DNA of 350 bases from NCBI RefSeq assembly GCF_003334255.1, contig NZ_QOWU01000258.1, one strand, 5' to 3'. Below the pieces are notes generated by a model, which saw only the letters and a list, made by a program, of their open reading frames with translations, was not told the DNA's origin and did no database searches. Position numbers and translations under genes: made by a program. Each line of letters opens with the position of its first letter. Positions within the stretch are counted from its first letter, which is position 1. This DNA comes from Escherichia coli. GTDB lineage: Bacteria; Pseudomonadota; Gammaproteobacteria; Enterobacterales; Enterobacteriaceae. This document shows, one piece after another, positions 1 to 350 of the stretch.

Positions 1-24
1 GCAAACTGCTCCGGAGGCAACCAT
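1..24 (-). CDS. Probable 5' end of a downstream gene (partial, continues beyond window position 1); start codon overlaps the stop of the upstream ORF (TAATG)
   Basis: Minus strand reads CAG AGG CTG TAA TGG TTG CCT CCG GAG CAG TTT GC. The ATG at 24..22 shares its A with the TAA stop. The frame M-V-A-S-G-A-V-C is open to the window edge. AGAGG lies 5 nt upstream of the ATG. Only 8 codons are visible, so this is an inference; an alternative start in a different frame at 58..56 is also possible. Confidence 0.3.
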
Positions 25-287
25 TACAGCCTCTGTAACGGATTATCAGCCCTGGCATCTTCCGACGGCACCTCCTGCCGCCCCCACGCCCTGCTGTATA
101 CCCCGGTACCGCAGCGTGGGCAGCACTTTTCCCCCTCATAATCTTCGTCACACATCACACAAAACCACTTTCTCACCTTCACCGTATAATCCGGAACCGT
201 CATGCCCTGCAGATGCAAACGACGGGCCTCTTTCTCTGCCGGGTCAAGCCAGGTACATCGCAGCAGGATTTTTTCAGCGACAGTCAT
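24..287 (-). CDS. Hypothetical small cysteine-rich protein, putative zinc-ribbon/zinc-binding; 87 aa from first in-window ATG, possibly N-terminally longer with start beyond position 350
   Basis: Supplied six-frame ORF, re-derived by hand: ATG at 287..285, TAA stop at 26..24, no internal stops. Six Cys in 87 aa, five of them clustered as C43-x2-C46-x8-C55-C56-x2-C59 (CVMCDEDYEGEKCCPRC), followed by a GTG motif. No + strand ORF competes. The same frame is open for 21 more codons upstream (288..350), and no Shine-Dalgarno precedes the ATG (minus-strand upstream sequence TTTGAACATGACCAG), so the start is uncertain. Confidence 0.72.
   Translation of the reverse strand: MTVAEKILLRCTWLDPAEKEARRLHLQGMTVPDYTVKVRKWFCVMCDEDYEGEKCCPRCGTGVYSRAWGRQEVPSEDARADNPLQRL
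30..34 (-). promoter_or_regulatory. Candidate Shine-Dalgarno (AGAGG) for the downstream overlapping start at 24..22
   Basis: Minus-strand AGAGG at 34..30 is followed by a 5-nt spacer (CTGTA) and then ATG at 24..22. The spacing is canonical, but the motif is embedded in the last codons (Q-R-L) of the upstream ORF, so it could be coincidental. Confidence 0.25.
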
Positions 288-350
288 CTGGTCATGTTCA
301 AACCACGGTGGTTGTCCGTCATTGCCCCGCTGAAGTGTTAACGGGCATCC

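Follow-up and report, generated by a model that had tools for sequence, protein, structure and literature searches.

The evidence supports the view that the gene covered by the stretch of Escherichia coli DNA analysed here (350 nt, hereafter the window) is a horizontally acquired genomic-island gene, and the skew of its arginine codons towards rare ones is real. Probably it is an accessory gene of the island backbone in which the skew has arisen as a by-product of history and constraint, and not as a device. Use of the rare codons AGG, AGA, CGA and CGG by E. coli island genes is textbook knowledge; the skew is an ordinary trait of an accessory gene, and annotations of the gene itself already exist in thousands of genomes.

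The window is 100% identical to many complete E. coli chromosomes, including those of Nissle 1917 (NZ_CP022686.1, positions 3346509–3346858) and the type strain ATCC 11775, and it represents the 3' three-quarters of the gene. The original prediction had set the gene limits at 24–287, but these proved to be wrong. Mechanical translation identifies the minus-strand ORF 24..287 as the last 87 codons of a 144-codon CDS, annotated by RefSeq in two genomes at window-equivalent positions 24..458, with its 5' part outside the window; the product is identical to WP_001221615.1, a ‘zinc-ribbon domain-containing protein’. The relevant features in the window are as follows.

24..350, minus strand: in-window part of the zinc-ribbon CDS, comprising the 3' 109 codons and the stop codon TAA at 24–26
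285..287, minus strand: internal Met58 codon, previously taken as the start, in a frame that is open on its 5' side

The frame runs from 287 to the window end with zero in-frame stops, the annotated ATG has the motif AGGAGG 5 nt upstream of it, and the Met58 column is not conserved in an alignment of 37 sequences of the family. An allele of 97% identity has 14 nucleotide differences, which give 13 synonymous codon changes as against one that is non-synonymous, and the seven differences lying 5' of Met58 comprise six synonymous and one non-synonymous. The open frame, the AGGAGG motif, the unconserved Met58 and the mostly synonymous upstream differences together indicate that the long frame is the gene, and judged by these features of the sequence the 144-codon gene is real and under purifying selection. 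Two short plus-strand ORFs (202–333 and 213–341) and a nested minus-strand ORF (46–126) were regarded as by-products of the real gene, lying antisense to it or out of frame with it.

The product is a protein of about 140 aa with two predicted zinc sites, one of the C-C-H-C type in a DUF7828 domain and the other a C4 zinc ribbon. Both Pfam models are matched significantly, and the protein is a full-length member, with no differences, of the Enterobacterales proteins that combine DUF7828 with Zn_ribbon_11 (formerly DUF3279).

192..350, minus strand: in-window part (residues 37–89) of DUF7828 (PF25165, residues 4–89; Pfam E=9.3e-31)
75..182, minus strand: Zn_ribbon_11 (PF11682, residues 93–128; Pfam E=1.7e-18)
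294–305, minus strand: W52-F53-E54-H55, in the putative C-C-H-C zinc site of DUF7828
255–257, minus strand: Cys68, in the same putative site
159–161, 150–152, 120–122 and 111–113, minus strand: four cysteine ligands of Zn_ribbon_11

Cys33 and Cys36 of the putative C-C-H-C site fall just beyond the window. In the 37-sequence alignment the putative ligand sets are C33-x2-C36...H55...C68 and C100-x2-C103...C113-x2-C116, and the ligand columns are either invariant or at least 90% conserved (C100 and C103 invariant, C113 and C116 at least 90%). Both domains are modelled confidently by AF2 (mean pLDDT 86, rising to about 95 at Zn_ribbon_11), and comparison of this model with solved structures returned generic zinc ribbons and no other fold. 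When 1.84 billion representative proteins were searched exhaustively, only 123 matches were obtained, many of them fragmentary; structure-database matches were exclusively family members from Enterobacterales, in genera that include Escherichia, Salmonella, Klebsiella, Citrobacter, Serratia, Pectobacterium and Yersinia. No NCBIfam model was matched, and no paper in the literature searched names PF11682, DUF3279 or DUF7828. The N-terminal domain has a C-x2-C ... aromatic-F-x-H ... C pattern like that of CoiA_N (PF25164), with a match that is weak (E=0.39 for this protein, below significance; E<=0.1 for nine of 37 relatives, the best being 1.3e-3), and unlike CoiA the protein lacks the CoiA nuclease domain. 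In UniProt, many members of the family are entered as ‘DNA-directed RNA polymerase, beta subunit/140 kD subunit’, which, on zinc-ribbon proteins of about 140 aa, looks like a propagated mis-annotation; others are named ‘Ybl85’ or ‘Competence protein’.

The arginine codons listed in the original prediction for ORF 24..287 were reproduced exactly by mechanical translation: in order, CGA, CGT, CGT, AGA, CGC, AGG, CGG, AGG and AGG, at codons 10, 22, 23, 39, 58, 66, 70, 79 and 86 of the 87. Exact too were the count of six rare codons in nine and the threefold occurrence of AGG in the last 22 codons (66–87). The rare set consists of CGG, CGA, AGA and AGG, and over the whole 144-codon gene nine of the 12 arginine codons belong to it. 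AGG encodes residues 123, 136 and 143 of 144, CGG encodes residue 127, and the other rare codons in the window are given here.

258..260, minus strand: CGA (Arg67), by translation
171..173, minus strand: AGA (Arg96), by translation
327..329, minus strand: CGG (Arg44), 5' of the originally predicted ORF and still in the window

The host reference comprised 111 annotated CDS from three chromosomal stretches of Nissle 1917 (36,959 codons, 1871 of them for arginine). Rare codons make up 22.2% of arginine codons in this set, in which CGT accounts for 39.3%, CGC for 38.5%, CGG for 9.1%, CGA for 6.5%, AGA for 4.6% and AGG for 1.9%, so the assumption that AGG, AGA and CGG are uncommon in the host was borne out. 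Against these frequencies, the binomial probability is 0.0054 for at least six rare codons of nine, 5.5e-4 for at least three AGG of nine and 1.5e-4 for the nine rare of 12 in the full gene, under a model that takes no account of differences between genes. When runs of nine consecutive arginine codons were taken from inside host genes, at least six rare codons were reached by 48 of 1055 (4.5%), and three AGG by none of the 1055. The skew is thus real and unusual, and its strongest component is AGG.

The codon oddity is limited to arginine, and the remaining codons are typical of E. coli. Codon typicality, scored as the mean log relative synonymous frequency against the 111-CDS set, gave z=-0.64 for the whole gene and z=+0.9 with arginine removed, which is more host-like than the average native gene. 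The predicted GC content of about 56% agrees with the measured values (ORF 55.7%, window 56.0%); the full gene has 53.6% as against 49.6% for host CDS, and so lies above the host and not below it. The coding strand of the gene has a GC skew of +0.24, rising to +0.31 in its window part, compared with 0.05±0.07 for host genes, and this excess of G is particular to the zinc-ribbon gene, being absent from neighbouring island genes and from distant homologues. At 24–287 on the minus strand the excess of G over C accompanies AGG, CGG and GGG codons. The rare fraction of arginine codons in neighbouring island genes is mostly 0.3–0.76, as against 0.22 in the host.

27..92, minus strand: G-rich 3' stretch encoding residues 123–144, with AGG at 90–92, 51–53 and 30–32 and CGG at 78–80
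71..76, minus strand: internal AGGAGG, Shine–Dalgarno-like, spanning the codons CAG-GAG-G

Residues 123 and 127 (AGG 90–92 and CGG 78–80) are variable and lie where the Zn_ribbon_11 match ends, and residues 136 and 143 (AGG 51–53 and 30–32) belong to a variable tail beyond it. The tail columns are unaligned or variable in the 37-sequence alignment, AF2 pLDDT over the last three blocks is 76, 61 and 57, and alleles diverge and differ by indels in this C-terminal tail. By eye, the internal AGGAGG is followed about 11 nt downstream by an out-of-frame ATG, the first after it, which begins an ORF of only about 20 codons.

We suggest that these features are probably explained as follows. The gene would belong to the conserved backbone of tRNA-integrated islands common to Enterobacterales, and, as a mobile-element gene presumably expressed at a low level, would be under weak selection for the preferred codons CGT and CGC. 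The AGG and CGG codons lie in a locally G-rich stretch at and after the last domain, that is, in what would be a poorly constrained, indel-prone tail beside the cargo junction, and codon choice in this tail may have been set by base composition and not by translational selection. In E. coli the argU, argW and argX tRNAs are scarce and CGA is poorly decoded; because of this, translation of the gene would be expected to be modestly slowed or low.

An unlikely alternative is that the rare arginine codons form a selected translational throttle tuned to the supply of argU and argW, perhaps coupled to a regulator resembling Hha. There is precedent in the EcoVIII restriction–modification system, in which clusters of AGA and AGG tune expression of the restriction enzyme in E. 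coli (PMC6456624); like EcoVIII, the present gene is horizontally transferred and has a surplus of AGA and AGG relative to the E. coli genome. Chromosomal Hha has been reported to repress rare-codon tRNAs, argU among them (PMC2408971), and the island encodes a short protein of the Hha/YmoA family two genes upstream of the zinc-ribbon gene (locus L001, 17406–17555), although any tie between that protein and the rare arginine codons is speculative. Furthermore, a paralogue in the island and several distant homologues are likewise rich in AGA and AGG, all three AGG codons are unchanged in the single 97%-identical allele compared, and a second allele also keeps rare arginine codons in the tail. 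This retention is compatible with selection, but the divergence between the sequences is too small to tell. Against the throttle, the effective codons of EcoVIII are consecutive and near the N-terminus (PMC6456624), whereas those of the zinc-ribbon gene are dispersed and not in tandem, with no tandem AGA/AGG near the 5' end; its AGG codons occupy variable positions and an unconserved tail at the 3' end, where ribosome stalling would least affect yield. In addition, only one of the six arginine codons is rare in a distant homologue (L011).

Evidence for the preferred reading, that of an island-backbone gene, comes from the surroundings of the gene and from its distribution. The original prediction had looked to flanking tRNA, integrase or other mobile-element hallmarks for confirmation, and these are present: in Nissle 1917 about 24 kb separate the gene from a tRNA-Leu gene and an adjoining site-specific integrase.

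Nissle 1917, 3320548–3320632: tRNA-Leu
Nissle 1917, 3320723–3322633: integrase

Between these and the gene are IS30, IS3, the fec operon, IS1 and IS66. On the opposite side is a backbone of genes for Rep-like, Hha-like, AlpA-type HTH and YeeP-type GTPase proteins, Ag43, DUF932, antirestriction, RadC/JAB, DUF987 and CbeA/CbtA proteins, and beyond the CbeA/CbtA end are restriction–modification genes. E. coli tRNA-associated islands with a YeeP–Ag43–DUF932–antirestriction–RadC–CbeA/CbtA backbone are of the same type, and the K-12 elements CP4-44, CP4-57 and CP4-6 are relatives; a literature search for this backbone yielded nothing specific. In other strains the module to which the gene belongs adjoins different cargo, a gentisate pathway in one and a sugar PTS/ribokinase cluster in another, and homology between islands stops 170–270 nt 3' of the stop codon. 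These sequence comparisons place the gene at the limit of the conserved backbone, where a variable cargo region begins. A shared 3' stretch is found at about 14755–15023 of locus L001, with equivalents in L016 and L017. In a distant island relative of low GC content (37%; L014/L015, 7400–10320) the zinc-ribbon gene is followed by SMEK_N/CTD10, MC6 and DUF2326 and then by an integrase, an arrangement suggestive of a slot for conflict or defence cargo at that same junction.

A location in a conserved core-genome context, which would speak against acquisition, was not found. Instead, the gene is set in an island, and the window is present in 3427 of 5426 complete E. coli genomes (63%), at one to five places in each, and missing from 37%. 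A few relatives are carried by large Klebsiella plasmids, where the zinc-ribbon genes are likewise paired. Copies of 97–99% identity are also labelled Veillonella sp. (a MAG) and Pseudomonas aeruginosa (a 307-nt contig), and these probably reflect contamination or mis-binning and not true hosts. The suggestion that the rare arginine codons fit horizontal acquisition is supported, with a qualification: the skew is real and acquisition is supported, but codon usage by itself is weak evidence, since the non-arginine codons are host-typical and some native genes are equally skewed. It is gene context, not codon usage, that shows acquisition; arginine skew alone would not have been decisive here, and context settled the origin.

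The same context bears on the kind of element involved, which the original prediction had left as a phage, a prophage or a genomic island. The genomic-island origin is supported by context and patchy distribution, and the phage or prophage part is not supported, with no phage match. A phage or prophage origin, with the gene carried by a cryptic prophage or a phage satellite, is very improbable, even though the related K-12 islands bear the label ‘cryptic prophage CP4-x’ and the neighbouring Rep-like protein, which goes by the name ‘inovirus Gp2 family’, has a match to one PHROG. Neither megablast nor tblastn found a DNA or protein homologue in 50,697 phage records, neither zinc-ribbon protein matched a PHROG, and the 70 kb of surrounding sequence contained no genes for capsid, tail or lysis functions. 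Phage origin was rejected on the absent DNA and protein matches in phage records and the absent PHROG. Membership of a known anti-phage defence system was likewise rejected, as neither the gene nor its paralogue nor the neighbouring Rep-like gene matched a PADLOC model. The three K-12 CP4 elements checked differ from the present island in that they keep the YagK/YfjJ gene (36–40% identity) and lack a zinc-ribbon homologue, none having been found in the CP4-6, CP4-57 and CP4-44 regions searched. Finally, a native, vertically inherited and poorly expressed gene whose rare codons reflect low expression is scarcely credible: equally rare arginine runs do occur in poorly expressed native genes such as glsB, dgcZ, ynfF and yjgR, and the other codons are host-typical, but this explanation is contradicted by distribution and context, as the gene is missing in 37% of complete genomes and multi-copy in others, sits between tRNA-Leu/integrase and island backbone genes, and has varied chromosomal neighbourhoods and cargo as well as Klebsiella plasmid copies.

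The immediate neighbourhood of the gene forms a conserved module. Directly upstream is the full-length paralogue, of 133 aa and 31% identity, with the same two zinc sites.

Locus L001, 15446–15847 (just past the right end of the window), minus strand: paralogue, overlapping the start of the zinc-ribbon gene by 13 nt

Upstream of the paralogue is the gene for the Rep-like protein, which matches YagK_YfjJ_C (E=1e-47) and REP_ORF2-G2P (E=5e-5) and in which an H-Y-H motif and a later tyrosine were seen by eye in the translation. Diverged islands and Klebsiella plasmids retain the zinc-ribbon pair. In homologues of 26–60% identity the Rep-like gene is still linked to a single zinc-ribbon gene or a pair of them, in some cases with an intervening AlpA gene, and these diverged linked homologues are found in the same island type across Enterobacterales. 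The three-gene module of 1.65 kb was found in 3237 of the 5426 complete E. coli genomes, at up to six places per genome. A promoter and terminator scan of the module yielded no more than shuffled sequences did, and a search of the window with Rfam gave no match better than chance, the best having an E of about 0.8 and a score far short of the gathering threshold.

Taken by itself, this conserved linkage suggests that the protein may be a nucleic-acid-binding accessory factor, acting beside the HUH-type YagK/YfjJ Rep-like protein and AlpA in island maintenance, replication or mobilization. More tentatively, and with rather more doubt than confidence, we propose that the YagK/YfjJ HUH Rep-like gene and one or two DUF7828/Zn_ribbon_11 genes may constitute an undescribed functional unit of these very common Enterobacterales tRNA islands, kept at a low level by the rare arginine codons; this proposal draws on conserved linkage and purifying selection. 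In one possible scheme an initiator or relaxase, assisted by zinc-finger accessory factors that bind DNA, would drive replication or mobilization of the excised island. Alternatively, it may act at the junction at which variable cargo is exchanged. About 60% of E. coli genomes carry a conserved, uncharacterized module, under purifying selection, of a Rep-like gene and tandem zinc-ribbon genes, located at the edge of the cargo region of tRNA islands.

The Nissle 1917 island has a counterpart in the SRL PAI of Shigella flexneri, in which the order of orf34–orf47 matches (PMC6980539). The published order is esterase, IS66, ‘orf38 no similarity’, YfjJ-like, Hha, AlpA, YeeP and Ag43 (PMC6980539), and from gene order, not from sequence, we infer that the zinc-ribbon gene corresponds to orf38.

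A large share of the database entries for the family are truncated (81–125 aa) or fused or extended (160–240 aa), which suggests frequent pseudogenization of the gene or its disruption by IS elements, and IS110 insertions are annotated inside the module in H43–H45. Mosaic alleles were also seen (L009, 8001–8420; L010, 832–1233), one sharing with the present gene the C-terminal half only and the other the N-terminal half only, and this half-sharing indicates recombination within the zinc-ribbon gene.
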